Sequence record: OR192075.1
Direction: 5' to 3' (one strand)
Length of the DNA stretch: 64,000 nt
From: Escherichia phage MIZ6
The notes beneath the pieces are model-generated. The model saw nothing but the letters and a program-made list of their open reading frames with translations. It was not told where the DNA came from and did not search any database. Of this stretch, positions 21,759 through 64,000 are shown in pieces (within the stretch, counting starts at the first letter, position 1; each line of letters begins with the position of its first letter). The translations under genes were made by a program, and so were the position numbers.

Positions 21759-22276
21759 TGACAGAAACTAAACCTATGTTAAAATTTGTTGTTCCTGTAA
21801 AAAAATTAGAGATAAACGGGAAACATATCAAGATTCCAAAAATGGGGATTAAGCAACATCGATTATTAAAAGATGTTCGTAGCTGTGATGAAACATTAAA
21901 GATTCTTCTTGATTCAATCTGTCCTGGGTTAAACGCTGCCGAGTCTGAATTGGTTATGCTTAACCTTTGTGCGTTTAATGGTAAGTGTCTGGAAGAAAAA
22001 GATGGTCTTAAGCTGTCTGATGTGTATATTTGTACAGAGACTGAATTTACTTTAAATGGTAAAGTCTTTAAATTTAAAAATCCAATGTACACTTCTGACC
22101 CCATTATCGATGACGCTGATTTCTTGAGTCATCATTATCACGATCCTAGTGTAGACTTCCATGATTTCCCAGCTTTTATTATGGATTGGGCTACAGGATT
22201 AAGAAAAACTATTGCGCTGGATACACCGGAAGGTACTATCTATGGTGGAATTAACATATTGGATCGCCTATCATGA
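21758..22276 (+). CDS. 28: Baseplate hub distal subunit gp28
   Basis: 172-aa ORF; ATGA overlap with gene 27. Confidence 0.6.
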   Translation: MTETKPMLKFVVPVKKLEINGKHIKIPKMGIKQHRLLKDVRSCDETLKILLDSICPGLNAAESELVMLNLCAFNGKCLEEKDGLKLSDVYICTETEFTLNGKVFKFKNPMYTSDPIIDDADFLSHHYHDPSVDFHDFPAFIMDWATGLRKTIALDTPEGTIYGGINILDRLS

Positions 22277-24006
22277 ATGACGCATTAACATCATTTCGCG
22301 GGATGCGCAAGGAAGCGGAAGAAAACCCGATTGATAAACTTAACAAATTAGATAAACTTGATTCTATTGATAATTTGCAAGCCGCTACCGAATTGGTGGC
22401 AGAGACAGTAGAACAAAAATCTAATGAAGTTGTTGGTGCGGTAGAGGATAACACCGCAGCCAATGAATTGACGGCAGAAAATACACAATCTACCGCTGGC
22501 AATACCCAAAAAACTTATGAAGAATTGCAAAAACTCAATAATTTCTCTTCTCAGATGAATGAGAAATTACGTGGTTTTGGTGTTATGATGGAACGTAGAT
22601 TTGGTGTTGTCAGTAAAATGGCTAGCGGTATTGGTGCGATTGAAGAAGCACTGAAAAAACCGGAACAACCGCAAACAATGCCATCACCTCAGCCAGTTTT
22701 GCCTACTGTACCGGAACAGCCTAATAATGACAACTATCAAGGTCTTCCAAAGAAAAAACCGGATGTTGAGGAACGGAAGAAAAAGAACGCCGCAGATAAG
22801 CGCAATGCGGATTCTATGGAAAATCTTCTTAAAGTTGTTCGTGGAGGATTTAAAGAAACCATAGGTATCTCTAATAAGGTCTTAGGGATGTTATTTAAGA
22901 TCACCTTGACCGCTATGGCAGAAGCCGCAAAATGGGGCGCTATTTTGATGGGTATTGTTTTTGCCATTGATACCCTTATGATTCATTTCAGATATTGGAG
23001 TGATTTATTCGAAACAAAATTTGATGAATTTATGGATAAAGCCGGAGAATGGGCTGGACCAATTAGTGATATTCTAACAACTATTCGTCAAGTTCGAGAT
23101 TATTGGTCTAAAGGCGAATATGGAGAGTTAATTAAATCTCTTGTTATGGGTATTGGTGATGCATTCTATAAAACCTTTATCCAACTTGATCGAATTATCA
23201 CTACTGGTATTGCTAAAATTCTTCGCATGATCCCTGGTATGGGTGATTATGCCGATAAGTTAGAATACGGTGCTTTAAAGTCTGCTGTCGCTCAAGGCTA
23301 TACGCCAAATGAAAGAGAACTCGAATTAATGGATAAGGTCGAGTCTGAACATGAAGAAGACAAATATGGAGAGCGTACTGGTTGGACCGGAAAAGCCCGT
23401 GATATTGGCGAAGCTATTGGGGATTCTATTAAGGATAAAGTTAACGAAGGTCTTGTTAGTCTGGGCTGGCGAGATCAAAAGGATGTTGACGCAGAGAAAC
23501 GACAAGAAGAATTAAAACGCGGGGAATATAAGTCTGTTTCTGCTGAACAACGATCTGCTAGTCGTAAACTTAGAATTAAAAGCGAGGGCGCGATCAATAA
23601 TATTAATGAAGTTATGGAGAATTTGAGCGGTGACTATGACAAAGAAAGAATGGGAGAGTTGAAAAAGGATATTGATGTTTACCGTGAGCAAGTTCAAGAT
23701 CCTACATTAGTTGAAAGTGATCGTTCTCAGTTAGAGCGTCTTATTGAAAAATTTGATGAGATGTATGCTGATAAAACTAAGGGTGCGGTTCCAACTAATC
23801 CTGTTCCTGCAACTGAAACGGAAACAGCAAAACAAGCGGAACGTACTGAACAAATGCAGAAACAAGCTGCAATCCAGCAACAAACGACAAATCAGACCTC
23901 AAACGTAAATAATACACAAATTGTAACAAACAATAGAACTGTTAAACAGGGTGCACCAACAACTAGAATTGATGCCCCCGGTACAATTAATATGGGGAAC
24001 TTTTAA
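22273..24006 (+). CDS. 29: Baseplate hub subunit / tail length determinator gp29
   Basis: 577-aa ORF, helix-rich with Gln-rich C-terminus; position as T4 gp29. Confidence 0.65.
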   Translation: MNDALTSFRGMRKEAEENPIDKLNKLDKLDSIDNLQAATELVAETVEQKSNEVVGAVEDNTAANELTAENTQSTAGNTQKTYEELQKLNNFSSQMNEKLRGFGVMMERRFGVVSKMASGIGAIEEALKKPEQPQTMPSPQPVLPTVPEQPNNDNYQGLPKKKPDVEERKKKNAADKRNADSMENLLKVVRGGFKETIGISNKVLGMLFKITLTAMAEAAKWGAILMGIVFAIDTLMIHFRYWSDLFETKFDEFMDKAGEWAGPISDILTTIRQVRDYWSKGEYGELIKSLVMGIGDAFYKTFIQLDRIITTGIAKILRMIPGMGDYADKLEYGALKSAVAQGYTPNERELELMDKVESEHEEDKYGERTGWTGKARDIGEAIGDSIKDKVNEGLVSLGWRDQKDVDAEKRQEELKRGEYKSVSAEQRSASRKLRIKSEGAINNINEVMENLSGDYDKERMGELKKDIDVYREQVQDPTLVESDRSQLERLIEKFDEMYADKTKGAVPTNPVPATETETAKQAERTEQMQKQAAIQQQTTNQTSNVNNTQIVTNNRTVKQGAPTTRIDAPGTINMGNF

Positions 24007-25064
24007 TGAAAATTAGTGTTATCAATGATGCCGTTGATAGCTTTAAAGCGGGGGTTAAAACCTCCGCTGGTTTTACCTCAAAAAATAAAGGGAAAACATT
24101 AACCGCTCAATTCCCCGCTGAACGTGCTAGCGGTAATGATGCTAGCGGTTATTATATCAACGACTTATATAATAATGGTCTGTTATTCACTGCATACGAT
24201 TATACATCTCGTACTACTGGATCGTTGCGTGATTTCAGGAAAAAGAAAAATGTTGCTAGCGGTTTTGGCGGTAGCGTTAATATCGCTGGTTTTGATTTAA
24301 ATTTGGGAGGGAGAAATGCTGCATTTGACCGCGAGGCAATTGCTAATATTCTTCTTCCTCGTAGTCAATCTGACGTTGACGCTGCTAGCCATAAGTTTAA
24401 TGATGTTGGTGAATCTGTCATTTCTCGCGGCGGTGGTACTTTAGGCGGTGCTCTTTCTAATATGGCATCTACTGCCGTTTTTGGTGGTATCGAAAGTATT
24501 ACTGGTGGATACCTTGCCGATCACGGTGAACAGATTTATAATACTGCGCGAAGCATGTATGCTGGTGCTGACGCACGAACTAAAAACTACGTATGGCATT
24601 TAACCCCACGTAGTATTGAAGACCTTCGCAATATTCTGATCATATACGAAACGTTTTTAGAATTGTCTTATGGATCTAGTGGTATTTCCAGCACCGCAAA
24701 AGAATTAAAAGCGGAAGTTGATGCGTGGTATAAAAATACACTATTGAGAAAATCCACCCCAGAGGAAGCGAAGAGAAATGATACTCTGTTTGAAGGGATC
24801 ACCGATTTTCTATCAAACGCAATTACTGTATCTAACCCGACAATATGGATGATCTCTAACTTTGGTAAGCGTACATCGTTTGAAGGGCGTAGCGATGCAT
24901 TTGGTCCCGCTCAGATCTCAAGTGTACGTCTGGACAAGTCGCCTGATGGTAAGTTTAATGGCCTTGCTATTTCTCCTAACTTGCCTAGTACATTTGTTCT
25001 TGAAGTATCATTTAGAGAGATCTTGACACTTTCCCGTGGTACTATATTTGGGAGTGCGGTATAA
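24006..25064 (+). CDS. 48: Baseplate tail tube cap gp48
   Basis: 352-aa ORF; position and size as T4 gp48. Confidence 0.7.
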   Translation: MKISVINDAVDSFKAGVKTSAGFTSKNKGKTLTAQFPAERASGNDASGYYINDLYNNGLLFTAYDYTSRTTGSLRDFRKKKNVASGFGGSVNIAGFDLNLGGRNAAFDREAIANILLPRSQSDVDAASHKFNDVGESVISRGGGTLGGALSNMASTAVFGGIESITGGYLADHGEQIYNTARSMYAGADARTKNYVWHLTPRSIEDLRNILIIYETFLELSYGSSGISSTAKELKAEVDAWYKNTLLRKSTPEEAKRNDTLFEGITDFLSNAITVSNPTIWMISNFGKRTSFEGRSDAFGPAQISSVRLDKSPDGKFNGLAISPNLPSTFVLEVSFREILTLSRGTIFGSAV

Positions 25065-25996
25065 TGTTTGATTTAAATGACTTTAACGAACAAGCCGCTA
25101 ACCTTGACTTTCAGCGATCTAACTTATTCAGCGTGGCATTTGCCACCACTCCAAGTAATAAGACACAAGCGATCCTAGAAAGTATGGGCGGTGCGGTATA
25201 TGATATTATACCAAATGCATTAAATGACTATTTCGGGATTACTCGTGGTGATTATACTGACGCATTAACAAATCTTGCTGTACAGGGTGTTAGGCGTGCT
25301 GTTGATTCATCTGGTGTCAAAAAGTATCTTTTAGGTGCAATGTCATCCCGCGTAGTTCAATCTCTTCTGGGGCAATTTGATGTTGGTACGTATGCGCTTG
25401 ACTGGTTCAATATGGCATATAAGACAAGCGGTCTTCTGGTGTATGCTGTTAAGGTTCCAGAAAACAGATTGAATTATGAAATGGACCGTAACCACAATGC
25501 ACCAAACATTCGAATTACCGGACGTGATTTTGATCCGCTTGTGTTGAGCTTTAGAATGGACTCTAGCGCATCAAACTATAGAGCAATGCAAGATTGGGTT
25601 AACTCAGTAGAAGACCCCGTCACAGGGCTTCGTGCGCTTCCTGTTGACGTTGAAGCGGATATTCAGGTCAACTTACATAACCGAATGGGAGTCCCTCACA
25701 CGATCATGATGTTTAATGGTTGTGTTCCTGTTGGTGTGAGTGCACCGGAATTAACCTATGAAAACAACAACGAAATTACAACATTCGATGTTACTTTTGC
25801 GTATAGGACTATGCAAACTGGTGCTGTAGGAGAGCAAGCCGCGCGAGAATGGATTGAGGATAAGGCAATAAACGCAATAACAAACACTTTCGGCAATAAT
25901 TTACTTGATAGTGGGTTATCTGCTGCTGGTAATGCTTTATCGCGTCTAAATGGCGTTGGTGGGCGTGTGGTGAATACTGTCACTAACTGGTTCTGA
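25064..25996 (+). CDS. 54: Baseplate tail tube initiator gp54
   Basis: 310-aa ORF; N-terminus MFDLNDF; gp19-like fold signature; position as T4 gp54. Confidence 0.75.
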   Translation: MFDLNDFNEQAANLDFQRSNLFSVAFATTPSNKTQAILESMGGAVYDIIPNALNDYFGITRGDYTDALTNLAVQGVRRAVDSSGVKKYLLGAMSSRVVQSLLGQFDVGTYALDWFNMAYKTSGLLVYAVKVPENRLNYEMDRNHNAPNIRITGRDFDPLVLSFRMDSSASNYRAMQDWVNSVEDPVTGLRALPVDVEADIQVNLHNRMGVPHTIMMFNGCVPVGVSAPELTYENNNEITTFDVTFAYRTMQTGAVGEQAAREWIEDKAINAITNTFGNNLLDSGLSAAGNALSRLNGVGGRVVNTVTNWF

Positions 25997-26005
25997 TAAG
26001 CGAAA

Positions 26006-26034
26006 GGCGGGGATTATCCCCCGCCTTTTTATTT
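26006..26034 (+). terminator. Rho-independent terminator after gene 54
   Basis: GGCGGGG-ATTAT-CCCCCGCC followed by TTTTTATTTT. Confidence 0.75.
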
Positions 26035-26514
26035 TGCTAAATCATTGCAATATTTTAGTGCCTTAGTTTGAAATTCTGCGCTGTTAAGTTCTTCATAACG
26101 GTCATAATCACCGTTTAATGCTGTCTTTCTTGCTTCTTGCTCTATCTGCATGTCAGACATGATAATACAGCGATCCCGTGCTTTCATCTTCTCAAGTTGT
26201 ATAGACTCTTCTTTCTGCTTGCGCAATTCTTCTTGACGCTTCTTTTCTTCTTGTGCTTTCTCTTCCCGCGCTTCTTTGATTGCATCCTTGAACATCTGCG
26301 TTTGTGGTGCTAAACCAACTTTAACGCGATCCACGTCTCGACGTTCCATTTTAGAAATAAAGCATGATTCGATCTGATCATCACTTGCATATGCTGCTTT
26401 ACATTCACGAAGCAAGAAAACCGGATCTGATTTAGCATTCATCATAGCTTCCATGTTGGCACAACCAGTAAGCATGAATGCAGCCGCAAGACCAATCAGT
26501 TTAATCATTTTCAT
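26029..26514 (-). CDS. Predicted lipoprotein with coiled-coil region
   Basis: 161 aa; signal peptide with lipobox LTGC; charged Glu/Lys/Arg-rich helix. Confidence 0.6.
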   Translation of the reverse strand: MKMIKLIGLAAAFMLTGCANMEAMMNAKSDPVFLLRECKAAYASDDQIESCFISKMERRDVDRVKVGLAPQTQMFKDAIKEAREEKAQEEKKRQEELRKQKEESIQLEKMKARDRCIIMSDMQIEQEARKTALNGDYDRYEELNSAEFQTKALKYCNDLAK

Positions 26515-27335
26515 TTAGTCACCTCACCGAAAATTGTAAATTGTCTACGATTCTCATCGCCGAAAGATTCTACTACGTCGTTTACCTTGACGCAAGTCCC
26601 GCGCGGTAAAATTACTTCACATTCGCAAGGGTTCCATGCAATTGACCCAACAACAAAACCTTTATGGTCTTTTACGTCAATTACCCATGATACATTACAA
26701 GAATGTTGCATCTTTCCGGTCATGGATTCATATCGATTCTCACAATAAAGGCTAGTGCTATTTGAAAGCCAGCCTCCAAAGATGATCGGTGTCATGCTGG
26801 TCGATACAAAGTTTTTAAAGGTAAACTCCTTATCTTCAATAATACGCTCTATTGTCTGAATGTCAAGATGTTGACCGCGATAAAGAGTACCGTTTAACTT
26901 TTCGGTTTTATCCATGACACAATCCATCAAATCAACAATCTCTGATATCTCATCGGTCATGTCTTCTTCCCCTAAGAGAGCACCATTTACCCATTCGTAT
27001 TGTTCAGACACATAATCACAGATTGCATTATATTCTGCTGGGGTTATGTTGTTATGTTTGTAATGTTTGAATACATTATCTCCAAAGTCTTCGGAGTGTA
27101 CTTCATACATCACATTAATGATTTTCTTGACAAATCCATAATCTTGTGTCTCACGCTCAAGGAAGCGGATAACCTTCACATAATCATCAAAGTTAATCTG
27201 ATCGCTGATCATCTCAGTGATCATGTAACCATTAATCCCCTCAATGTCATATGTTTCGATGTAATTATCCATACGTTCCATCATTGATTCGCGTGATTCT
27301 TCTGAAAGACGAAAATCCTGTAATTTCTTGAACAT
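26511..27335 (-). CDS. ADP-ribosyltransferase (Alt/Mod-family paralog)
   Basis: 274 aa; R-S-E triad context LYRG ... FVSTS ... CECEVILPRG parallels Alt. Confidence 0.7.
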   Translation of the reverse strand: MFKKLQDFRLSEESRESMMERMDNYIETYDIEGINGYMITEMISDQINFDDYVKVIRFLERETQDYGFVKKIINVMYEVHSEDFGDNVFKHYKHNNITPAEYNAICDYVSEQYEWVNGALLGEEDMTDEISEIVDLMDCVMDKTEKLNGTLYRGQHLDIQTIERIIEDKEFTFKNFVSTSMTPIIFGGWLSNSTSLYCENRYESMTGKMQHSCNVSWVIDVKDHKGFVVGSIAWNPCECEVILPRGTCVKVNDVVESFGDENRRQFTIFGEVTK

Positions 27336-27354: not shown

Positions 27355-27386
27355 AGAAAACGGGGCTAGTATAAAACTAGTCCCCG
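27355..27386 (-). terminator. Terminator-like hairpin after alt
   Basis: CGGGGCTAGT ... ACTAGTCCCCG imperfect stem preceded by plus-strand A-run. Confidence 0.45.
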
Positions 27387-27413
27387 TTTGAGTCAACCAT
27401 TATTTCTTAAAAA

Positions 27414-29465
27414 TTACATTTTAAATTTATCTGGCATTGCGTCTACAGATACCAGATCAGCGATAAGCTGACGTAGAGTTGCCTTATCTGCTTTCTTACG
27501 TTCGGTTTTAGCTTCGCTAATGAAGCTGGAGAAAGACAGGTCAGAAGCAGGTTTAACAACACCTTCACGGATGAATGCATCACCGTCCGCGATCATCTCA
27601 CCAGATTCTTGTAATGCTGCCAGTTCACTTTTGTTCATAATATGTGCCTCAATGTAATAAGTTTCTTGTGAATCCGTCGATGCCGTAGCACGAGTTACCG
27701 TATCAAAGGATAACACAACACCGCGAGGAAGTAAAATCTCGCATTCTTTGTAAGCAAATGCTTTGTTACCTACTGGCAATACAGGGATGTTTTCCGCGCC
27801 AGCAATGGAGAAAGCAACATTAGCGCCACCTTCACCGCGAGAGCCAGCCATAGAATCAACACCAGCAATGGCACTAGCCACGTTTGCATTCCAGCCACCA
27901 AAAATGTTAGGTGCAAGGGAAGTGCTCACATAGTTTTTAAAGTAAAACGCTTTTTGCTTACGTGCAGTTTCCCACATTTGAGACCGGAAGTCCATACCAC
28001 GATACAGAATAGTACCCGGATCAAGTTTAACGCCATAGTTAGAGAAGGCATTATCCAGTGCATCGCACATCTTGACCAATTCTTCTGGATCTGCGATTCC
28101 CTCAAACTCTTCCAGCTTACGATCAGTTAGGAAGTTGTTCATATTGATGTATGCTGCATCGGCATATTCGCTCAACACAAAACCTTCCGCGCCCGGCAGA
28201 TCAAGATCAATATCTGCCATCATTTCACCCATGTTGCTAGCAATTGCTTCAAACATACCGGACGCAACATTACGAAGGGCATCGGTTTTAATCTGGGTGA
28301 TATGACTACGCAGCATTTCAGCTTTTACATCTGCTGGCATAGACTGGTCTACTCGATCCATTGCCAGGGCGGTGATCTTGTTTTCGAATACTTCCTCGCT
28401 CATGATTTCTTTTAAGCGTTTGATTGAGGCTGCGATAACTTCCGCAGACAACGGATCATATTGATCCTGAACTTTTACCAGTTCGCTTACTGCGTATTTT
28501 GCATCGGCTTCGCTTTCAAAAATAGTACGCATGAAACCATAGCGAGTGATAATATCACTTGTCCAGTCATTCAGAGAACGAGCGGTTGAACGTTCTAAGG
28601 CTTGACGATCAATCAGAGTATTAAACTGTTTCTTAGGTTCGGCTTCGGTGATATCTTCTTCCGGTTTAAGATTAATTTTTTCTGGATGATTCACATAGTC
28701 GCTGTTATAGGTCGCTTGAGTTTTCAGCATTTCTTCTTTAGTCAAACGAGATTTAGCCGCTACGCGTTGTTCTGCTTCCGCGTTTCGTTCTTCTTCTGAC
28801 ACAAGACTAGCCGCATACGCCTCATCTTTAGTCAGAGATTCACCAGTAGCCTTAGATACCCAGCGATCACCTAAATCACTTTCTACTTTAGTGAACAAGG
28901 ATTCATCAAGTTTAATCCCTTTAATCTTATCAATCGCCATCCCGCGACGCTTGACAACAACTAAAGCGATCTTTTTGCTGGTCATTACTTCCTGCTGGAA
29001 TACTTCAAACTTCGGTGTACGACGCACCAGACGCTCTATAACGCGCTTAACCAGTTCGGTCTTACCTTTCATGCGGGATACGTTAAAACGGAACATAACA
29101 GCGTCTAATTGCGCTTTACGGGCTGTTTCCATAACCACATCAAAAGCACTTGCCATAACTGCAATCGGGTTATCGCCTAGACCATTTTTAAGCTGTACAA
29201 TACGACCGCTTTTGTTCATTTCGCACAGTACAACATGTGCGGTCTTGTCACCCATACGAATGATTTTAGGTGTTTTGTTGGTGAAGTTACAAAGACGGAC
29301 AATCACATCTTTATCGCGTGTCTGTACTGCAAAAAGCTGTTTAGGATTCTGCTTAGGCTTTAAGCACTGTACCGGAGCAATACTGCCAAAGTTTTCTTCC
29401 TCTTCCGTCAACAGCCATTTCTCGAAAGATTCAATCATTAGATCGTCGATTTCTAAGTTAAACAT
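27414..29465 (-). CDS. alt: ADP-ribosyltransferase Alt
   Basis: 683 aa; LYRGMDF ... YVSTS ... YKECEILLPRG; size and position (after gene 54) as T4 Alt. Confidence 0.8.
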   Translation of the reverse strand: MFNLEIDDLMIESFEKWLLTEEEENFGSIAPVQCLKPKQNPKQLFAVQTRDKDVIVRLCNFTNKTPKIIRMGDKTAHVVLCEMNKSGRIVQLKNGLGDNPIAVMASAFDVVMETARKAQLDAVMFRFNVSRMKGKTELVKRVIERLVRRTPKFEVFQQEVMTSKKIALVVVKRRGMAIDKIKGIKLDESLFTKVESDLGDRWVSKATGESLTKDEAYAASLVSEEERNAEAEQRVAAKSRLTKEEMLKTQATYNSDYVNHPEKINLKPEEDITEAEPKKQFNTLIDRQALERSTARSLNDWTSDIITRYGFMRTIFESEADAKYAVSELVKVQDQYDPLSAEVIAASIKRLKEIMSEEVFENKITALAMDRVDQSMPADVKAEMLRSHITQIKTDALRNVASGMFEAIASNMGEMMADIDLDLPGAEGFVLSEYADAAYINMNNFLTDRKLEEFEGIADPEELVKMCDALDNAFSNYGVKLDPGTILYRGMDFRSQMWETARKQKAFYFKNYVSTSLAPNIFGGWNANVASAIAGVDSMAGSRGEGGANVAFSIAGAENIPVLPVGNKAFAYKECEILLPRGVVLSFDTVTRATASTDSQETYYIEAHIMNKSELAALQESGEMIADGDAFIREGVVKPASDLSFSSFISEAKTERKKADKATLRQLIADLVSVDAMPDKFKM

Positions 29466-30065: not shown

Positions 30066-30584
30066 TTAGTTATTTTTTAATTGCTCATCTTGTAATAGGG
30101 CAATAACATGCTGTCGATGTTCTTCCGATTGAGGCACACCGAAAAAGTTTGTTTTGTAGAAATACTCTAATCGGTCTTCTCGTGTGCTCTCTTCCATCAT
30201 GATCGCGGGTAGTCCGAGATTTCGGAAACGTCGCTTTTCTGCTGGCGTAAAATCACTGTAATACAACATAGAATCATCATTACCAGCAATGCTAAACTCA
30301 TCATTCATAAAGGAGAATATTGCGTTTAAACGCTGTTTACCGTCCACGATTTCGATCTCATAGCGAGAGCCATCATCAATCTTAGCCATTGCGATAGCAC
30401 CAACCGGAAAATCATTAATCAGGTTTTCGATAAACATACGTTTGTTTTCGGTGTCCCATACCAAAGGACGCTGATAATCTGGGTTCATGTTGATATAGCC
30501 ATCTTCTAACCACGCCTCATAAACAGAGATGACAAAGTTTTTAGTATTGGTATAGTAACGGCGTTTAGGCGTTAAACGGTTCAT
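30066..30584 (-). CDS. DUF262 (ParB/Srx-like, GmrS N-domain-like) protein
   Basis: 172 aa from ATG 30584 (SD AGGAG upstream); motifs DYQRP and VDGKQR typical of DUF262. Confidence 0.55.
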   Translation of the reverse strand: MNRLTPKRRYYTNTKNFVISVYEAWLEDGYINMNPDYQRPLVWDTENKRMFIENLINDFPVGAIAMAKIDDGSRYEIEIVDGKQRLNAIFSFMNDEFSIAGNDDSMLYYSDFTPAEKRRFRNLGLPAIMMEESTREDRLEYFYKTNFFGVPQSEEHRQHVIALLQDEQLKNN

Positions 30585-41318: not shown

Positions 41319-41633
41319 TTATTTATAAATTTCGACGATCTGCGCTGGAGTCAGCCCGTCTACATTAATCAGACTATCAAGCCCAAAACTACGGAAACCT
41401 TCAACTGCAATTTCATATACTGGCAAAGATGTTTCTGATTCTTTACGCGGTTTTTCAACATTAGGAACTAACCACTTTTCGTATGTTTCGAAAGGCATCA
41501 GTGCCGGATCTCGCGTGGCGATCATCTCACGGACAGTACCATCTTTCTTAGTAAACTGCAAAGAGTGAGTACCGACCGAAAACATTTTCTTTAGTGCTTC
41601 ACGAAGTGCGATATTATCAACTTGTTCAGTCAT
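41319..41633 (-). CDS. Hypothetical protein (104 aa)
   Basis: ATG at 41633; overlaps cd stop. Confidence 0.45.
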   Translation of the reverse strand: MTEQVDNIALREALKKMFSVGTHSLQFTKKDGTVREMIATRDPALMPFETYEKWLVPNVEKPRKESETSLPVYEIAVEGFRSFGLDSLINVDGLTPAQIVEIYK

Positions 41634-42362: not shown

Positions 42363-43240
42363 TAAAAGTCTCCGTAGTTAACCTGAAAACATTCTACACC
42401 AATTGAGCGGTACATGTCAACCACTTGATCACGGTCATCTACTGCCAACACAACATGATAACGCGGTGCAATTTCAGAGAAGAAAATCTCTTTCTTCACT
42501 TCATGATCAGGACGACGATCATTAGTTTCACGTTGAAAATGATCGCTAGGTTCAATACCCTGTTCACGCAGCCATTGCAGAGTATCTTCTTCGCAAACAT
42601 CCTCACGCCCTGAGCATGTAATGATACGATAACCATTATCACGATACAGTTTAAGCATTTCGATCACTTGCGGACGCGGTTTATCTTCTTTGACCTTTGT
42701 CCAGTCAAACGGATGACGACCGCCCTTATCCGCTAATGTTCCATCAATATCAAAGATCACTGCCTTCGGCAGCATGGTATTCGGTTTGTATACTTCTTGA
42801 CCCATATATTCCTGCATCAGATAAAATTGGTTGCGCAAATTAGAAAGTGGAATTGCTTTCTCGCCGCGATAGAAATTACGTTTCTTTAGTGTCTCAAATG
42901 ATTCATTGAACACTTGTTCAGTATACACCGCGTTAAATTCTTTTGCAAGTTCTTTGTAGAATACACGATGTTTTTCTTTCAGGTTGGTATCGGAGATAAT
43001 GATACTCAATCCGCGTGATAGAGTCTCACGAGCAATCATTCTCTGAATAGACTCTACCAGCTTTTCTTTTTCCTTAGTATACTTGTATTTCAAATGTGAG
43101 TCAACACCAAACAACATAAGACGAAGATCATCACGATTCACATTACGATAATTACTAAACCGTTTACACGTTTCCATAGCCCATGTAGTTTTACCGGACC
43201 CAGAACAACCAACGGTTAAAATCACTTCACATTTCGGCAT
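42362..43240 (-). CDS. pseT: Polynucleotide kinase / 3'-phosphatase
   Basis: From ATG 43240; Walker A GCSGSGKTT and HAD phosphatase motif VIFDIDGTL. Confidence 0.9.
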   Translation of the reverse strand: MPKCEVILTVGCSGSGKTTWAMETCKRFSNYRNVNRDDLRLMLFGVDSHLKYKYTKEKEKLVESIQRMIARETLSRGLSIIISDTNLKEKHRVFYKELAKEFNAVYTEQVFNESFETLKKRNFYRGEKAIPLSNLRNQFYLMQEYMGQEVYKPNTMLPKAVIFDIDGTLADKGGRHPFDWTKVKEDKPRPQVIEMLKLYRDNGYRIITCSGREDVCEEDTLQWLREQGIEPSDHFQRETNDRRPDHEVKKEIFFSEIAPRYHVVLAVDDRDQVVDMYRSIGVECFQVNYGDF

Positions 43241-43692
43241 TATTTCTCCTTCGGTTTGCACCGTTCCTCATTAAGTTCTTTTCGATAATAACACATGATC
43301 AACTTACTTTCAAGTGTATATCTCTTAATATCCGCAAGCCAGACTCTGAATTTTTGGGAGTCCTCCCACGACATAGAAACTCTAGGTTTACCGTCTATTG
43401 TATCCACTTTCAGGTCAATGTCAACTTTTTCTATTGGTGCTGGTAGTTGAGGATGTAATTTCGGTTCCTGTGAATAATGGTCCATTGTACACGAAGAAAG
43501 AGCAAATACAATAGGTACAACGAAGACATGGATTATTGCGGTCTGAAAATTCTTATGTGCTTTCTTAAACATCCAGTGTATCACGAAAATTGAAAACACC
43601 ATCAGGATAATAATGCTTGCACATATCCCCAGATAATCAACCAGATTAAAATTGCTTATCTGCTCTTGCGTAGGCAATATTTCTATGCTCAT
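43240..43692 (-). CDS. Putative o-spanin-like lipoprotein (start uncertain)
   Basis: Lipobox-like FALSSC after hydrophobic segment; position equivalent to T4 pseT.2. Confidence 0.4.
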   Translation of the reverse strand: MSIEILPTQEQISNFNLVDYLGICASIIILMVFSIFVIHWMFKKAHKNFQTAIIHVFVVPIVFALSSCTMDHYSQEPKLHPQLPAPIEKVDIDLKVDTIDGKPRVSMSWEDSQKFRVWLADIKRYTLESKLIMCYYRKELNEERCKPKEK

Positions 43693-44012
43693 TTAGTAGC
43701 CTCCTTTAATTCTTCGGTAAACTCCTTAAATGAATCATTAAGCTGTTTCTCTACCAACTTGGGTTTTTGTGCTACTACATAGCCTCGTGTAGCGTCTTTC
43801 ATTGCTTTGTTTTGTTCTTCTGCAAACTTAGTTCTTATTCCGTACATATCCTTTTGTAGTGAGTCTACGACCTTCATCTTTTCATCTGTCTTTTTCTTAT
43901 ACTCTGTAAATTCCTGATTCAGTCGATCTACCTCCTTTTTATTTTCCCACCACATATTGCCACCTACCCCCAGCAACACAGATATGATAACAATGTATAT
44001 CAGCTTTGACAT
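43689..44012 (-). CDS. Putative i-spanin-like protein (N-terminal TM + coiled coil)
   Basis: From ATG 44012 (SD GGGGG); TM helix then charged helical region; position equivalent to T4 pseT.3. Confidence 0.45.
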   Translation of the reverse strand: MSKLIYIVIISVLLGVGGNMWWENKKEVDRLNQEFTEYKKKTDEKMKVVDSLQKDMYGIRTKFAEEQNKAMKDATRGYVVAQKPKLVEKQLNDSFKEFTEELKEATK

Positions 44013-58555: not shown

Positions 58556-61500
58556 ATGGCAGATTTTTCTCAACATTTCAAGGCCACATTTGGCTTTGAC
58601 GCTGGTAATGAAAAGGTCGTCAATGTAGCATACGCAGATAAAAACACATCAACGGATGCGGTCAACGTTGAATTTTTCAATTACCATAATGGTATTACTC
58701 AGTATGACACAACTCGCGGTTATGATCAATACGGAACTACAATCTATCAAAACCGTCCGTATTATGCAAAAGAAGATATCACAAAGCCAGCAGGTGATTT
58801 TGACCCGACTAAATGGCAAGCACTGCGCACCGATCCACGTTGGGATTATATTGCAGCAACTTCCGGTGATACTCCTTTAAAGTCTGGTGATTATATCGCA
58901 GCAGATGGTCAATTTGCAAACTTGACTTTCTCTATGCCAACTAAACCAGCAGAGGGAGACACTATAACAGTAAAAGATATCGGTGGCAAGTGTGGTGTTA
59001 ACGAATTATCGTTCTTGAGTTCAGGACATGAGTTTTACCATAACGGTAATGTGTATAACCGAAAATGGTATTGCACTACCCCGTATGCAATGAACTATTT
59101 CATCTTTGTTCGGAATCGTTGGCATGTTTATCAGACGGGAACAGAGCCGCGCGGTGTGTACGCACAGCCAGCGATTGATGCTATTCAAATGCAGAATGGT
59201 GACCAGGTATTTCGTCGTAGTTCGTTGGGTAATATTACCTTAGTGCTTCCTAAGTTTGCCAACAATGGCGACATGATCCAGACTACAGACCTTGACGGAT
59301 TAACCGCAACCAACCACGTTACGGTTAAAGTTCATGAGCACGCAGAAGAACAATCAATTGGCACGTCCGGTCTAAAAGAGATTATCGGTAAGCGTAGCGG
59401 TCATGGTGTATTCATCTTTGACAAGACGGAAAACTTATGGCGTTTGTGGGATGGTGATCAGTCTGTTCGTCTTAAACCGATCATCGATGACACTCGCTTG
59501 CAACCTAATAGCTATGTTGCTGTATTTGGTGATCGTGATGTTACTCTGACGCTGCCGACCAATGTCGAGCCGGGTGATCGTATTCAAGTTTCTATGCAGT
59601 ATATGCACGGAAACCAGAATTGCCGTATTATCACCCCCACAGAGGATACAAAAATCCTTATGCAGAAAAACATGGTTCAGTTTCCTAAGCGTAGCGAGTA
59701 CCCATTCAACGGGACCGACACATGGAAGGAAGTGTCTGAATTGTCGTTCAATGCGGCTAGTGATTATGTACCTTATCTGGAGTTCTCTTATTCAGAAGGT
59801 GATGATGGTAAGAAACATTGGCTGGTAGCACACTCTCATCCGATCGTCGAACGAGTAGACCCTACTCGTAAAGAGCGTGTTGGTGTAATTGCACTGGCTA
59901 CCCAGGATGAAACAAACAAAAACCATGAAGATAATCCTAGCGACGAAGTTGCGGTGACTCCAAAGGTTCTGGCTAATAAAACAGCCAACGAAACTCGACG
60001 CGGTATTGCTCGCATTGCAACTCAAGCGGAAACGCATCAAGATACTGGTTCCAACTTCCTGGATGATGTTATCGTTACGCCTAAAAAGTTAAATGACTGT
60101 GTTGCTACCGAAGCCCGTCGTGGTGTGATGGAAATTGCAACCCAGCACGAAACCAATGAAGGTTTAGACGATACCCGCGCTATTACTCCTAAGAAATTAG
60201 AAGAACGTCGCGCTTCCGAAGATCTCGCTGGTATTGCTGAAATTGTTCAGGTTGGCGGTAGTGCTGCCGCTCGACGTGGCGAAGCTGGTACAGGGATCTA
60301 TAACATCAACGACCATGCTAAAATTGTTACGCCAAAAAACATCAACGAGGTCAAGGCGACCGAAACTTCCCGTGGTGTTGGCTATCTGGCAACTGACGCG
60401 GAAGTGCAAGGGGCTACAGAATCAACCCCGCAAGATGCTTTACTAATCACGACTCGCACGCTAACGAAACGTACTGCTACCGAATCGCGCACTGGTATCG
60501 CTGAAATTGCAACTCAGGAAGAAACAAACTTAGGTCAAAGTGATAACCATATCATCACGCCTAAAAAGCTGCATACTCGCCGCGCAACGGAAACTTTACA
60601 TGGTTTAGCAGAAATTGCAACTCAGCCGGAATTTGACGCAGGTCTTGACGATGCTCGCATTTCTACTCCATTGAAGATTAAAACCTTCTTTGAGAATGCA
60701 CAGCGTTTGAAAGTAGATCCGACTCAGGGGCTTAACCTTACTGGTGATTTGTGGCAAGGTATCATGATCAGCGGTCTGGATGCAACCGAAGACACAAAAG
60801 GTGTCGCTAAAGTTGCTACTACTCAGCTTACGGATGCTGGTCAAGATGATACTACAATCATCACGCCTAAAAAGCTGCAAGGCAAAAAAGCCACCGAAGG
60901 TAAAGAAGGTATTATCCGCGTTGGTACTCAAGCCGAAACCGTGGCTGGTACACTGGCTAATGTAGCAATTTCTCCGAAGAACTTCAAATATGTTGTTCAG
61001 ACAGAGGATACATGGAAAGCAACCGAAGCTCGTCGTGGTTTCTTGAAAGTTGCTACTCAGGAAAACTGTTTTGTTGGTGACAATCTGCAAGGTTCTACTC
61101 AAGAACTAGGAAACTACCAGCATGACGGAATTGCTGTTACTCCGAAAGGATTAAACTACGCACTTGCTAATTTCTTACCTAAGATGGCAACCGCTCAGAA
61201 TAGTTTGAAATTGGGTAACGTAGAGGCCGCTAAATGGGCGCGTAGAGACATTGACCAGACCATAGAGAGCAATTACACGTTTAATAAAAACGTTAACGTG
61301 AAGGGCGATTTAGGGTGCTTAAAATCTGGTTCCTTTGAAACTCTTTCTGTGACTAAGAACTCTACTGATGTTCCGAGTAATGGTCATCTGGTGTTGGGTA
61401 AGCGTGGAGTTGACGGTCACACCGGAATTACTCTGCATGGTACAACCGCATCGGAAGGCATGAAAAACTCGTGGTCTATTATCGTTGGTGGTACTGGAAC

Positions 61501-62296
61501 AGCGCAAGTTGTTGATAGTGATGCTATCGCTTTCGGTCAAATCAATGATGGTGGAGTCGTCGAGCATTACGCCTTTGCTGTGGAACACAATGGCGACGCG
61601 ACAGCATATAGAGACTTTATTGCAGGTCGTAACCTGTATGCGAAACAAGGCGGTTTATACATTGTTGACCAGTCTAATCCGGCAATGACTCGTTCCCCAG
61701 ATGGTATGCTGAATATCGGTCACGGTGGAAGTGTTAACATCAAGGCAGGTCATCAAACGTTAACTACCGAGATCGCCGGACAGAAATATCAGATCGTACA
61801 CGCAGGAAACGCTGACGAAGTTCTTAACCGTCAGTTTGTTAAGAATGCTGGCGATACAATGGTCGGCAAGCTGACTATGGATAATGCGCCTATTGTTTCT
61901 GTTAAGCATGAAGCTAGCGCGGCAACCGCTCCGGCAATCGGCAACATCGGTTTCTGGAATATGCGAGTTACTACCCAGAACATCAAAGAAACTTATCCAG
62001 AGAAGAAAAACGGTACTCTGATGCAATGGGGTACTGACGCGGACGGGCTTACCCAGCTTTGGTCCCCTGATGGTACTCATAAACATTATATCCGTTCCGG
62101 TACTGGTGGTCAATGGACCGCATGGGGTGAAATTTACACCAAACAGAATAAGCCTACCGCTCAGGAAATCGGGGCAGTAGTTGCAGAAGGTGGTTTAATG
62201 AACTCTATGACGGTTCGTGATTGGATCAAAGTTGGTAATGTTAAAATCATCGCCAATAATCTGACTCGTACCGTAGACTTTATCTGGGAAGACTAA
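58556..62296 (+). CDS. 34: Long tail fibre proximal subunit gp34
   Basis: 1246 aa; repeated ITPKKL / GIAEIATQ fibre motifs. Confidence 0.85.
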   Translation: MADFSQHFKATFGFDAGNEKVVNVAYADKNTSTDAVNVEFFNYHNGITQYDTTRGYDQYGTTIYQNRPYYAKEDITKPAGDFDPTKWQALRTDPRWDYIAATSGDTPLKSGDYIAADGQFANLTFSMPTKPAEGDTITVKDIGGKCGVNELSFLSSGHEFYHNGNVYNRKWYCTTPYAMNYFIFVRNRWHVYQTGTEPRGVYAQPAIDAIQMQNGDQVFRRSSLGNITLVLPKFANNGDMIQTTDLDGLTATNHVTVKVHEHAEEQSIGTSGLKEIIGKRSGHGVFIFDKTENLWRLWDGDQSVRLKPIIDDTRLQPNSYVAVFGDRDVTLTLPTNVEPGDRIQVSMQYMHGNQNCRIITPTEDTKILMQKNMVQFPKRSEYPFNGTDTWKEVSELSFNAASDYVPYLEFSYSEGDDGKKHWLVAHSHPIVERVDPTRKERVGVIALATQDETNKNHEDNPSDEVAVTPKVLANKTANETRRGIARIATQAETHQDTGSNFLDDVIVTPKKLNDCVATEARRGVMEIATQHETNEGLDDTRAITPKKLEERRASEDLAGIAEIVQVGGSAAARRGEAGTGIYNINDHAKIVTPKNINEVKATETSRGVGYLATDAEVQGATESTPQDALLITTRTLTKRTATESRTGIAEIATQEETNLGQSDNHIITPKKLHTRRATETLHGLAEIATQPEFDAGLDDARISTPLKIKTFFENAQRLKVDPTQGLNLTGDLWQGIMISGLDATEDTKGVAKVATTQLTDAGQDDTTIITPKKLQGKKATEGKEGIIRVGTQAETVAGTLANVAISPKNFKYVVQTEDTWKATEARRGFLKVATQENCFVGDNLQGSTQELGNYQHDGIAVTPKGLNYALANFLPKMATAQNSLKLGNVEAAKWARRDIDQTIESNYTFNKNVNVKGDLGCLKSGSFETLSVTKNSTDVPSNGHLVLGKRGVDGHTGITLHGTTASEGMKNSWSIIVGGTGTAQVVDSDAIAFGQINDGGVVEHYAFAVEHNGDATAYRDFIAGRNLYAKQGGLYIVDQSNPAMTRSPDGMLNIGHGGSVNIKAGHQTLTTEIAGQKYQIVHAGNADEVLNRQFVKNAGDTMVGKLTMDNAPIVSVKHEASAATAPAIGNIGFWNMRVTTQNIKETYPEKKNGTLMQWGTDADGLTQLWSPDGTHKHYIRSGTGGQWTAWGEIYTKQNKPTAQEIGAVVAEGGLMNSMTVRDWIKVGNVKIIANNLTRTVDFIWED

Positions 62297-62301
62297 TTAA
62301 A

Positions 62302-62317
62302 GGGGGCGAAAGCCCCC
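62302..62317 (+). other. Hairpin GGGGGC-GAAA-GCCCCC between genes 34 and 35
   Basis: GNRA-type tetraloop; no T-run after it. Confidence 0.5.
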
Positions 62318-62329
62318 TATGGGGTTATT

Positions 62330-63469
62330 ATGACACAAGATATAGAATTACGCAACACTGGAATTAGGTTTGCGCATTTCGACGAAGACTCTGCGACATT
62401 TACCAGCATTTCAGAAAATAACTCTGTGATGTATAAGCTGGAAGTGCGCGGATCTAATGCGGATTCTACCAAACCAGCAAGAATTAGATTTAATGGAGTG
62501 GAGATCGTTGGCACTGGCTATGAAAATGGCCTAAATTTTAAAGTTCTTACTCCAACTGGACAACTACACGAAGAAAAGGTATTCTATGGTCGCGGTGCTG
62601 TTTTGGCAATGCGTGATTATCTTTCTTTGCTGAAAGGTGACTATATCATTGCGATGGCAACGCATGGAGAATTGTTTGCAGATCCGATAAGTGATGTTGT
62701 ATTTTCTAAGATGGGATCTGTATCATTCCCGAATCACATTTTGCTACAGCAAATGCCTCGCGTATCCTATGCAGCAATTTATTCTACTAAAATGGGTAAA
62801 ATTGTGTGCGAAGGGATGCAAGCGACCCACGGGGAAGGACAAGATTCATCTATACAAATTGAGAAGGTTTATGATACTATAGATGATCTTGCTATAACAG
62901 GAACACCACAACGATTTTTAGATTATCCGGTTGAGTATGTTAGCGAAGATGCCGAACATTTCGAGCTAATACAATGGCCTCGTGATGAGACCAGCGCACC
63001 ACTTGAGGATTTTAACATAAAGGCAGGTGACAAACTATCAATATCCTTTGAATTGTTCCGTGATAGTGCCGCAGCCGCAGCCAACGTAACAGCGCGTTTC
63101 TATCACAACTACTTCACCGATGGACAATATCAAACTGGTGTTCGATACAATGCCAGCAAAAAAGACCAATGGGAAAAGTTTGAAGCCGTCTATACCGTAC
63201 CGGAAGGTGTCGATAGTGTAGTAACTGGTTGTATCAGATATCCAACCAACTCCAATGAAGGTATTGTTAAAATTAGAAACATACTAATAACGCCGATCAG
63301 TGGAGTGGTCAAAACTACTGGTCCTACTTCATTTGGTGTTAATGGTGTTAGAACAACTCATATTCAGGATAACGGTGATTTTACTAACCCTGTAATGAGT
63401 CTTCTTAAGCTGCCTAGAGACAATAAACATATCACATCCAACAACTTTAAAGAGTTCGATGTTGATTAA
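62330..63469 (+). CDS. 35: Long tail fibre hinge protein gp35
   Basis: 379-aa ORF between genes 34 and 36. Confidence 0.65.
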   Translation: MTQDIELRNTGIRFAHFDEDSATFTSISENNSVMYKLEVRGSNADSTKPARIRFNGVEIVGTGYENGLNFKVLTPTGQLHEEKVFYGRGAVLAMRDYLSLLKGDYIIAMATHGELFADPISDVVFSKMGSVSFPNHILLQQMPRVSYAAIYSTKMGKIVCEGMQATHGEGQDSSIQIEKVYDTIDDLAITGTPQRFLDYPVEYVSEDAEHFELIQWPRDETSAPLEDFNIKAGDKLSISFELFRDSAAAAANVTARFYHNYFTDGQYQTGVRYNASKKDQWEKFEAVYTVPEGVDSVVTGCIRYPTNSNEGIVKIRNILITPISGVVKTTGPTSFGVNGVRTTHIQDNGDFTNPVMSLLKLPRDNKHITSNNFKEFDVD

Positions 63470-63481
63470 CATTTTTAACAA

Positions 63482-63509
63482 GCCGATCCATGTGGTCGGC
63501 TTTATTTTT
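63482..63509 (+). terminator. Rho-independent terminator after gene 35
   Basis: GCCGATC-CATGTG-GTCGGC followed by TTTATTTTT. Confidence 0.65.
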
Positions 63510-63631
63510 ATACAGTTGGTTAAAATGTAACCAAAACGAAGAAAGATCTTTAGAATAATAGAAAATTTGTTTCGGTTAAAAATTAGTCAGTGCCTCCGGC
63601 ACGTCGCGAAGCGATATTTTTGTTAACATTC

Positions 63632-63639
63632 TATAAATA
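63632..63639 (+). promoter_or_regulatory. Late promoter TATAAATA upstream of gene 36
   Basis: Exact TATAAATA 33 nt upstream of ATG 63673. Confidence 0.7.
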
Positions 63640-63672
63640 CTCGGAACTATAACTAATTTTTGAGGTTACTTT

Positions 63673-64000
63673 ATGGCAGATTTGAAATATGGATCTACTG
63701 TAGGTGGATCTCCCATTTGGACGCAAGGAAACTTGACGATCCAGCCAGCGGGGGATCAGCTTTTCTACAAAGGTCATAAAATCTATACCGCTTTTGATAG
63801 ACCTTCGGCTACCGATTTTGATGCTGTTAGTGCATCCGAAGGTGGCACATTTCAAAAGCAAGTTCATTTCGAGGAAGGTTTAAGCGTAGGTAGCGCATCG
63901 GCTGGAGAAACCAAAAAGAATGGTATCTTTAAAGGTCAGAGTGACGCTGCTAATTTTGACGGCGTAAGCTGGGGTTTGCATTCATGGAAGTCAATCGGCT
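63673..64000 (+). CDS. 36: Long tail fibre protein gp36 (3'-truncated by window end)
   Basis: N-terminus MADLKYGSTVGGSPIWTQGN aligns with T4 gp36 N-terminus. Confidence 0.8.
   Translation, partial: MADLKYGSTVGGSPIWTQGNLTIQPAGDQLFYKGHKIYTAFDRPSATDFDAVSASEGGTFQKQVHFEEGLSVGSASAGETKKNGIFKGQSDAANFDGVSWGLHSWKSIG

Follow-up and report, generated by a model that had tools for sequence, protein, structure and literature searches.

A predicted outer-membrane lipoprotein of RB49-like coliphages with exchangeable mature-domain alleles, a candidate for superinfection exclusion at a periplasmic step

What does a phage gain from a lipoprotein gene that lies between gene 54 and the genes of two ADP-ribosyltransferases? 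We asked this question of a locus in Escherichia phage MIZ6, using 64,000 nucleotides of sequence record OR192075.1, which we call the window. The gene occupies 26029..26514 on the minus strand, begins with ATG and encodes 161 amino acids, exactly where a preliminary description made from the sequence had placed it, and it has gp54 on one side and a 274-residue ADP-ribosyltransferase (ART) followed by Alt on the other. We propose that its product, a putative outer-membrane lipoprotein, mediates superinfection exclusion at a periplasmic step. This is a tentative reading to which we assign a probability of roughly 0.35. Whole-genome comparisons were made with the complete genome of phage MIZ2, an RB49-like Krischvirus to which the window is identical at the same coordinates. 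Coordinates of the features are collected in Table 1.

The predicted protein begins with MKMIKLIGLAAAFMLTGC, in which K2 and K5 precede a hydrophobic core and a lipobox, L-T-G-C, that ends at Cys18. A lipoprotein signal peptide had been noticed here from the sequence, and it is indeed present by a coded form of the PROSITE PS51257 rule, which asks for at least one K or R among residues 1-7, a hydrophobic core free of charged residues, the motif [LVI][ASTVI][GAS]C and a cysteine at position 15-35. As a chance control we ran the rule on all 1537 candidate starts of open reading frames of at least 40 amino acids in the window. Two annotated genes passed, the lipoprotein gene and the Rz1-like o-spanin gene (43240..43572), and the remaining matches were in unannotated frames or deep within the DNA ligase gene. 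Orthologues have been labelled in the same way: the record of phage W115 calls its copy a 'putative lipoprotein', the W115 paper stating that LipoP was used, and the UniProt name of the KFS-EC orthologue is 'Lipoprotein'. We consider it very probable that the gene product is a lipoprotein, with lipidation predicted at Cys18.

To judge the reality of the gene we used its pattern of substitution and its conservation. The ratio of nonsynonymous to synonymous divergence (dN/dS) was 0.11 in a comparison with a homologue of 82% identity, encoded on a gut-metagenome contig of 170 kb. This value and the conservation among homologues rule out a chance open reading frame; purifying selection acts on the gene, which is genuine and conserved in RB49-like (Krischvirus) coliphages. 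The protein matched PHROG 16112, a family with no assigned function, at E 2.6e-109 over residues 1-161 of the 161-position profile. A word-indexed search returned about 40 clusters, all from phages or metagenomes, and an exhaustive HMMER search of 1.84 billion representatives gave 12 matches, 10 of them full- or near-full-length. The members of the family all belong to T4-like phages.

We then aligned 13 diverse members, which go down to 23% identity. M1, G17, C18, C38, C51, D60, G67, C116, G135 and C156 are invariant. The residue at position +2 is Ala in 12 members and Ser in the other, never Asp, and the spacing from C116 to C156 is exactly 40 residues in 12 of the 13. The length of the charged spacer in the middle of the protein differs among homologues, and signal residues 1-18 are identical even in homologues of only 30% overall identity. 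Because the Gly-Cys pair is invariant, Asp is never found at +2 and the other cysteines are invariant as well, we read the product as a lipid-anchored periplasmic protein that is probably sorted to the outer membrane and faces the periplasm. Two disulfides are probable in the oxidising periplasm, and the layout of the modelled helices suggests the pairing C38-C51 and C116-C156. A second type of signal peptide (MKMIKLIGLAAALVAMLNGC or MKIIKLIGLAALVAMLNGC) was observed at loci L003 (3501-4016) and L017 (1260-1772). Its lipobox is LNGC, with Asn at -2, which is outside the usual consensus and the PROSITE rule.

The preliminary description had also pointed to a highly charged helical region. We found it at residues 73-115, where 16% of residues are hydrophobic, inside a predicted 62-residue helix (72-133). 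The AlphaFold2 model of the commonest allele, allele A, has six helices, at residues 11-27 (including the signal peptide), 31-41, 45-65, 72-133, 137-143 and 146-159, with a mean pLDDT of 87.6, a pTM of 0.56 and a pLDDT above 90 in helix 72-133. The model of allele B has the identical six-helix topology, with the long helix at 80-142 and a pLDDT of 84.9. Residues 73-115 contain 8 i/i+4 pairs of opposite charge (Glu with Lys or Arg), in the manner of ER/K single helices. Searches with the model and with profiles led to no known protein. Foldseek against the PDB gave no match below E 0.9, matches in BFVD were confined to the lipoprotein family itself, and a profile search of PDB sequences produced a signal-peptide match to TraV only. 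Searches of Pfam, NCBIfam and PADLOC gave sub-threshold matches only, mostly to signal peptides, and the match to PHROG 1119 (Cor; E 0.0073) covers residues 1-45 only, which are mostly signal peptide.

The evidence that bears most on function comes from the variation of this gene among close relatives. By tblastn the gene was found in 56 E. coli Krischvirus records, 50 of which carry allele A (95-100% identity), the form present in MIZ2 and RB49. At this same locus the other 6 have alleles with an identity of about 29%. Phage JK32 was missed by tblastn and carries a B-type mature part behind the second signal-peptide type. At least three alleles, with a mutual identity of only about 30%, are thereby found among some 58 near-identical E. 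coli Krischvirus genomes. The boundaries of the variation are sharp. Phage 011D4 is 92-100% identical to the window in both flanks and falls to 17-55% only between about 26045 and about 26500; identity is back to 92-100% from about 26044 leftwards, which marks the right boundary of the cassette. The DNA of phage Whisky, which has allele B, is identical through the Cys18 codon and unalignable directly after it. The alleles are exchanged between the signal-peptide coding region and the terminator.

We asked if these alleles had diverged in place or had been brought in from elsewhere. The flanking genes of 011D4 show a dS of 0.04-0.07 and protein identities of 99-100%; for the lipoprotein gene, dN was 0.74 and dS was 1.85. 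Since dS is saturated in the lipoprotein gene while flanking dS is low, the comparison indicates that the alleles are ancient and were imported by recombination and are not evolving fast in place. Rapid positive selection in place is ruled out by the same contrast (dS of 1.6-1.85 in the lipoprotein gene, about 0.05 in the flanks). The exchange also reaches parts of the mature protein: alleles B and C are 71-90% identical in the C-domain and 28-35% identical in the N-domain, the two signal types occur with different mature types, and N- and C-domains reshuffle between alleles. Over the genome as a whole, MIZ2 and 011D4 align at 96.7% identity across 157 of 164 kb, and only 11 gaps reach 120 bp or more, a gap being a region with no megablast match of at least 85% identity. 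Five of the 11 are like-for-like replacements, which affect the mature domain of the lipoprotein, the gp37 fibre tip, the C-terminus of an exported DUF1311-like protein and two hypothetical proteins. Exchange of a cassette in surroundings of 97-100% identity suggests a role in envelope competition or an arms race, of which exclusion would be one form.

The exported DUF1311-like protein is a second periplasmic protein with swapped modules. It is encoded at 71241-72041 of MIZ2 on the minus strand and has 266 amino acids, a signal peptide with ANA-AS at its end and, by eye, a DUF1311/LprI-like N-terminus; its C-terminal half is replaced in comparison with 011D4. A DUF1311 match at E 0.2 was reported for RB49ORF260c (Nolan et al. 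2006), which may be the counterpart of MIZ2 71241-72041.

When would the lipoprotein be made? A promoter scan found TTGACT-17-TATACT, with 10 of 12 matches to consensus, between the alt and ART genes, and the record of phage GEC-3S has a promoter annotated at the matching position. The GTTGAC element is consistent with the early -35 consensus of RB49, a phage in which neither motA nor middle promoters were found (Nolan et al. 2006, PMC1524935). The nearest T4-type late promoter (TATAAATA) on the minus strand in a scan of the window is at 41320. We infer that the ART and lipoprotein genes are transcribed early, as one unit, from the predicted promoter. The first gene of this unit encodes a paralogue of the catalytic part of Alt (Pfam ADPrib_exo_Tox, E 4e-16; PHROG 15144 and 802), and RB49ORF183c has been described as a duplication of alt (Nolan et al. 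2006, PMC1524935). The TGA stop of the ART gene overlaps the lipoprotein ATG as ATGA. As a separate observation, conservation of the ART is far above that of the lipoprotein, with protein identities of 97-100% versus 31-82%.

The downstream end of the unit is shared with gene 54. The stop codon had been described as lying inside the T-run of the gene 54 terminator, and this is so: TAA is the reverse complement of 26029-26031 and stands directly after the hairpin at 26002..26029, in the context ...CCCCGCC-TTTTTATTTT. The scan called this hairpin as a plus-strand terminator, and the GEC-3S annotation gives it as bidirectional. The hairpin's tail on the minus strand, TTTCGCTT, is the weaker one and escaped the scan. 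The hairpin probably also ends the ART-lipoprotein transcript. At the upstream end, a GC-rich bulged hairpin follows alt, was not called by the terminator scan, probably owing to the bulge, and may be the terminator of alt. The -10 element TATACT sits in its loop and 3' arm, and from the sequence the alt terminator and the early promoter of the next unit seem to overlap, at 27361-27397 on the minus strand.

T4-type phages are the reference system for superinfection exclusion, in which Imm and Sp are the T4 proteins that we looked for. Neither had a detectable homologue in the complete MIZ2 genome by tblastn (best E 0.049, inside the helicase gene), a search in which the positive control gp40 was found at E 8e-8, and the MIZ2 record has no feature named as an exclusion or immunity protein. 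Because no Imm or Sp homologue is detectable, it is plausible that Krischviruses carry a functional substitute, an argument from absence. Literature searches for a described lipoprotein or exclusion function in Krischvirus or RB49 returned nothing specific and no paper giving a function. Existing annotations give the gene as 'hypothetical protein' or 'putative lipoprotein', and the present analysis adds the definition of the family, its architecture and its cassette polymorphism.

The reading that we favour would work as follows. The RB49-type early promoter would drive a two-gene transcript, first the short Alt-like ART and then the lipoprotein, whose translation would be coupled to that of the ART through the ATGA overlap and the Shine-Dalgarno sequence GAGGTG, and the transcript would end at the hairpin shared with gene 54. 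In the mature part of 143 residues, which would face the periplasm, the long charged helix would connect two small domains of helices, with a probable disulfide closing each, and could keep the C-terminal domain at a depth of several nanometres beneath the outer membrane. Binding of an envelope partner, specific to the allele, would interfere with competing T-even-type phages. The affected step would be periplasmic, either tail-tip penetration or DNA transit, and not a masking of the receptor of the phage's own adhesin. Specificity would be altered when phages exchange entire mature-domain alleles or sub-domains. A bolder form of this proposal, which we hold to be doubtful, is that the family represents a new class of envelope effector, an outer-membrane 'ruler' in which the charged single helix positions the disulfide-locked C-domain at a set periplasmic depth where it intercepts the incoming tail tip or DNA conduit. 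The interchangeable alleles of the N- and C-domains would then define mutual exclusion groups among co-circulating Krischviruses, and the family would stand in for the Imm/Spackle system of T4 that these phages lack.

Several points weigh against exclusion at a periplasmic step. No covariation of the lipoprotein alleles was found with the phage's own gp38, gp37, gp5, gp54 or gp48. A single gp38 type (97-98.5% identical) is common to phages with allele A (ELT4, Sf20, GEC-3S, Makalu and others), allele B (E26 and PHB13) and allele C (011D4), allele A is found with at least three gp38 types, and gp37 variants are interspersed among the lipoprotein alleles. Nor is a Spackle-like matching with gp5 apparent: all 59 records that matched encode a gp5 of 98.8% identity or higher. 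In 011D4, gp54 and gp48 reach 99% identity. A lipoprotein aimed at a tail-tip protein of close relatives might be accompanied by some corresponding variation in its target, and a variable host target could explain the polymorphism equally well. Neither in sequence nor in fold does the product resemble Llp, Cor, Spackle, Imm, Ltp or TraT, or any PADLOC, Pfam or NCBIfam model. The relative placement of the domains is uncertain, with a pTM of only 0.55-0.56, and promoter activity, lipidation, disulfides and location are all predicted.

The fibre genes themselves are arranged as follows. Long tail fibre genes 34-36 start inside the window (58556-64000, plus strand). In genome coordinates gp37 is at 65234-67921 and gp38 at 123323-124108, so that about 55 kb separate the two, whereas in T2-type phages they are neighbours. 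Among Krischviruses the tip of gp37 varies as a continuous mosaic, at 36-86% identity.

Receptor masking had been raised in the preliminary description beside superinfection exclusion, and while the lipoprotein assignment stood, this part of it was weakened. In the manner of T5 Llp and of Cor, the product would bind the periplasmic face of the receptor outer-membrane protein, OmpA for RB49, and inactivate it, which would block superinfection and save progeny from cell debris. As a predicted early outer-membrane lipoprotein with conserved disulfide cysteines the product does resemble Llp, and the F-plasmid outer-membrane lipoprotein TraT protects against OmpA-specific phages, which we counted in favour. 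RB49 gp38 has been reported to target OmpA (bioRxiv 10.64898/2026.04.02.716166). However, llp adjoins the gene of its receptor-binding protein, whereas distances of about 97 kb and about 39 kb separate the lipoprotein gene from gp38 and gp37, respectively. Because the alleles do not covary with gp38 or gp37, masking of the Llp style, matched to the phage's own adhesin, is disfavoured. In addition the protein consists entirely of helices in the model, whereas Llp (7 kDa) is rich in beta structure and smaller by a factor of about 2.3, and the resemblance of the protein to Cor is confined to the signal peptide. We regard masking as unlikely. The same lack of covariation with any tested phage entry protein would fit a counter-defence protein or modulator of the host envelope, one that neutralises a variable host or prophage factor (a defence, a protease or a prophage exclusion protein) and whose alleles track host diversity. 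Ancient and very divergent alleles kept and exchanged within one phage species, expression that appears early from the predicted promoter and the swapped C-terminus of the exported MIZ2 71241-72041 protein in the same genome pair all agree with it. No host partner was identified, no similarity to known anti-defence proteins was found and the PADLOC matches were insignificant, and we rate this explanation as rather improbable.

An anchored helical rod could instead act on peptidoglycan, Lpp or the spanins, tuning the timing of lysis or the disruption of the outer membrane. A helix of about 9 nm on an outer-membrane lipoprotein could reach the peptidoglycan, somewhat like Lpp or the spanin complexes, and allele B gave a weak match to the Lpp/OprI alanine-zipper lipoproteins (E 0.017) that did not pass the NCBIfam cutoff. 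We doubt this strongly: the window has a complete Rz/Rz1-type spanin pair elsewhere (43240..43955), holin (68305), endolysin (132682) and rI are all encoded far away, the promoter of the lipoprotein gene is early-type and not late, and alleles of 30% identity within one species are not expected of housekeeping lysis genes. Identity as the o-spanin was rejected, because spanin PHROGs 812 and 739 match the separate Rz/Rz1 pair. Finally the lipoprotein could be a functional partner of the short ART upstream, for example an immunity or targeting factor, which would account for the strict adjacency and the translational coupling. An ART of 271-282 amino acids is directly upstream in every lineage with a readable upstream gene, down to 23% lipoprotein identity, and usually abuts or overlaps the lipoprotein gene (two short contigs with an incomplete upstream frame were left out). 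But T4-like genomes are broadly syntenic anyway (PMC1524935). A direct partnership is very unlikely, since the ART has no signal peptide and would be cytoplasmic, whereas the lipoprotein is exported, and since the ART is unchanged when the lipoprotein allele changes: its protein is 100% identical between phages whose lipoproteins are 31-33% identical, with no matching of alleles.

Superinfection exclusion at a periplasmic step, if correct, would have practical consequences. A probably early, exported lipoprotein whose mature domain is one of five like-for-like replaced segments in genomes about 97% identical is an obvious candidate for envelope competition. Krischviruses are common in gut and sewage and are used in therapeutic cocktails; exclusion groups, if true, would affect cocktail design and the outcome of co-infection. 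The three natural alleles and the domain chimeras form a ready-made specificity panel.

Table 1. Positions in the window of the lipoprotein gene parts, its transcription unit and the adjoining genes
Feature	Position	Strand	Basis or remark
gp54	25064..25996	+	convergent with the lipoprotein gene
Hairpin GAAAGGCGGGG-ATTATC-CCCCGCCTTTT and T-run; terminator of gene 54 (+)	26002..26035	.	scan; right boundary of the allele cassette
TAA stop codon, in the T-run of the gene 54 terminator	26029..26031	-	sequence
C-terminal helical domain, residues 116-161; invariant C116, G135, C156	26032..26169	-	alignment and AlphaFold2
Charged ER/K-like helical spacer, residues 73-115 (QMFKDAIKEAREEKAQEEKKRQEELRKQKEESIQLEKMKARDR)	26170..26298	-	composition and AlphaFold2
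N-terminal helical domain, residues 19-72; invariant C38, C51, D60, G67	26299..26460	-	alignment; AlphaFold2 helices 31-41, 45-65
Signal peptide, residues 1-18 (MKMIKLIGLAAAFMLTGC), ending at the Cys18 codon (predicted acylation)	26461..26514	-	PS51257-type rule; left boundary of the allele cassette
Shine-Dalgarno GAGGTG, 5 nt 5' of the lipoprotein ATG, within the end of the ART gene	26520..26525	-	sequence
274-aa ADP-ribosyltransferase, paralogue of the Alt catalytic part, first gene of the unit	26511..27335	-	Pfam, PHROG
Bulged hairpin CGGGGACTAG-TTTTATA-CTAGCCCCG, then TTTT; directly 3' of the alt stop	27361..27386	-	by eye
Predicted sigma-70 early-type promoter of the ART-lipoprotein unit: GTTGAC (27397-27392), spacer, TATACT (27373-27368)	27368..27397	-	scan and GEC-3S annotation
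Alt	27414..29465	-	5' of the 274-aa ART

The order Alt, short ART (271-282 aa), lipoprotein, convergent gp54, gp48, gp29 was kept wherever a contig was long enough, and parts of this order were visible in shorter contigs. In T4 and in Karamvirus CkP1 the corresponding locus holds unrelated small open reading frames. In T4 these are alt.-3, alt.-2 and alt.-1, the last two being leftovers of a duplication of alt according to the T4 record; in CkP1 there is a 95-aa frame at the alt.-3 position. We considered alt.-3 as a counterpart of the lipoprotein gene and rejected it, because its translation has no signal peptide. A recombination boundary was seen near the ART-lipoprotein junction, with a dS of 0.2-0.3 in the Alt/ART block and 0.8-1.3 in the block of lipoprotein, gp54, gp48 and gp29. 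The gp29 tape measure (22273-24006, plus strand) is 71% identical in protein to that of a gut-metagenome relative, versus 90-99% for its neighbours, with a dN/dS of 0.18. In phage Whisky the region past gp48 is annotated differently.

Two further observations concern other genes of the window. In the spanin pair (43240-43955, minus strand) the o-spanin is annotated as 150 amino acids (43240..43692); a start that carries a lipobox (MFKKAHKNF...FALSSC) is found at 43572 and gives 110 amino acids, so that the annotated start is probably too far upstream. A 172-aa 'hypothetical protein' encoded at 30066-30584 on the minus strand matches GmrSD_N (DUF262; Pfam E 4e-20), a domain that forms the N-terminus of type IV restriction enzymes, which cleave modified DNA; its presence is odd in a phage whose cytosine is unmodified.

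How does the protein compare with known systems? TraT of the F plasmid is a surface-exposed, oligomeric outer-membrane lipoprotein that acts in surface exclusion and blocks OmpA-specific phages. The phage protein has no homology to it and, unlike TraT, is predicted to face the periplasm. The two are alike as outer-membrane lipoproteins of mobile elements that limit, or would limit, the entry of competitors, and OmpA is the reported receptor of RB49 (bioRxiv 10.64898/2026.04.02.716166). Llp of T5 is an outer-membrane lipoprotein that is made early, contains a disulfide and keeps out superinfecting phage, and its gene adjoins that of the receptor-binding protein pb5, so that both co-segregate (bioRxiv 10.64898/2026.03.26.714494). 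With Llp and with Cor of T1/phi80-type phages the protein shares a lipobox, a predicted place in the inner leaflet of the outer membrane, a virulent phage as its source, an early-type promoter and conserved cysteines of the kind that essential disulfides would require. There is no sequence homology to either, and the gene neither lies beside nor covaries with that of a receptor-binding protein; the mature part has 143 amino acids and is all-helical in the model, in contrast to about 61 amino acids and a beta-rich fold in Llp. The o-spanins of the Rz1 type are likewise phage outer-membrane lipoproteins with periplasmic cysteines. They differ in that the lipoprotein gene stands apart from the i-spanin gene, has an early promoter and encodes a protein three times larger that is not proline-rich.

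Spackle (Sp, gene 61.3) of T4 is a periplasmic exclusion protein that inhibits the gp5 tail lysozyme. Like it, the protein described here is an exported protein of a T4-type phage whose cysteines are expected to be oxidised in the periplasm, although tblastn revealed no sequence homology to Spackle or to Imm. Ltp of Streptococcus phage TP-J34, a lipoprotein, acts in exclusion by blocking the tape-measure step. Its source is a temperate phage of a Gram-positive host, its anchor is in the cytoplasmic membrane, and no homology between the two was detected in the PDB searches. A lipid-anchored, helical and modular exclusion protein that acts after adsorption is the type of mechanism that we propose for the Krischvirus lipoprotein.

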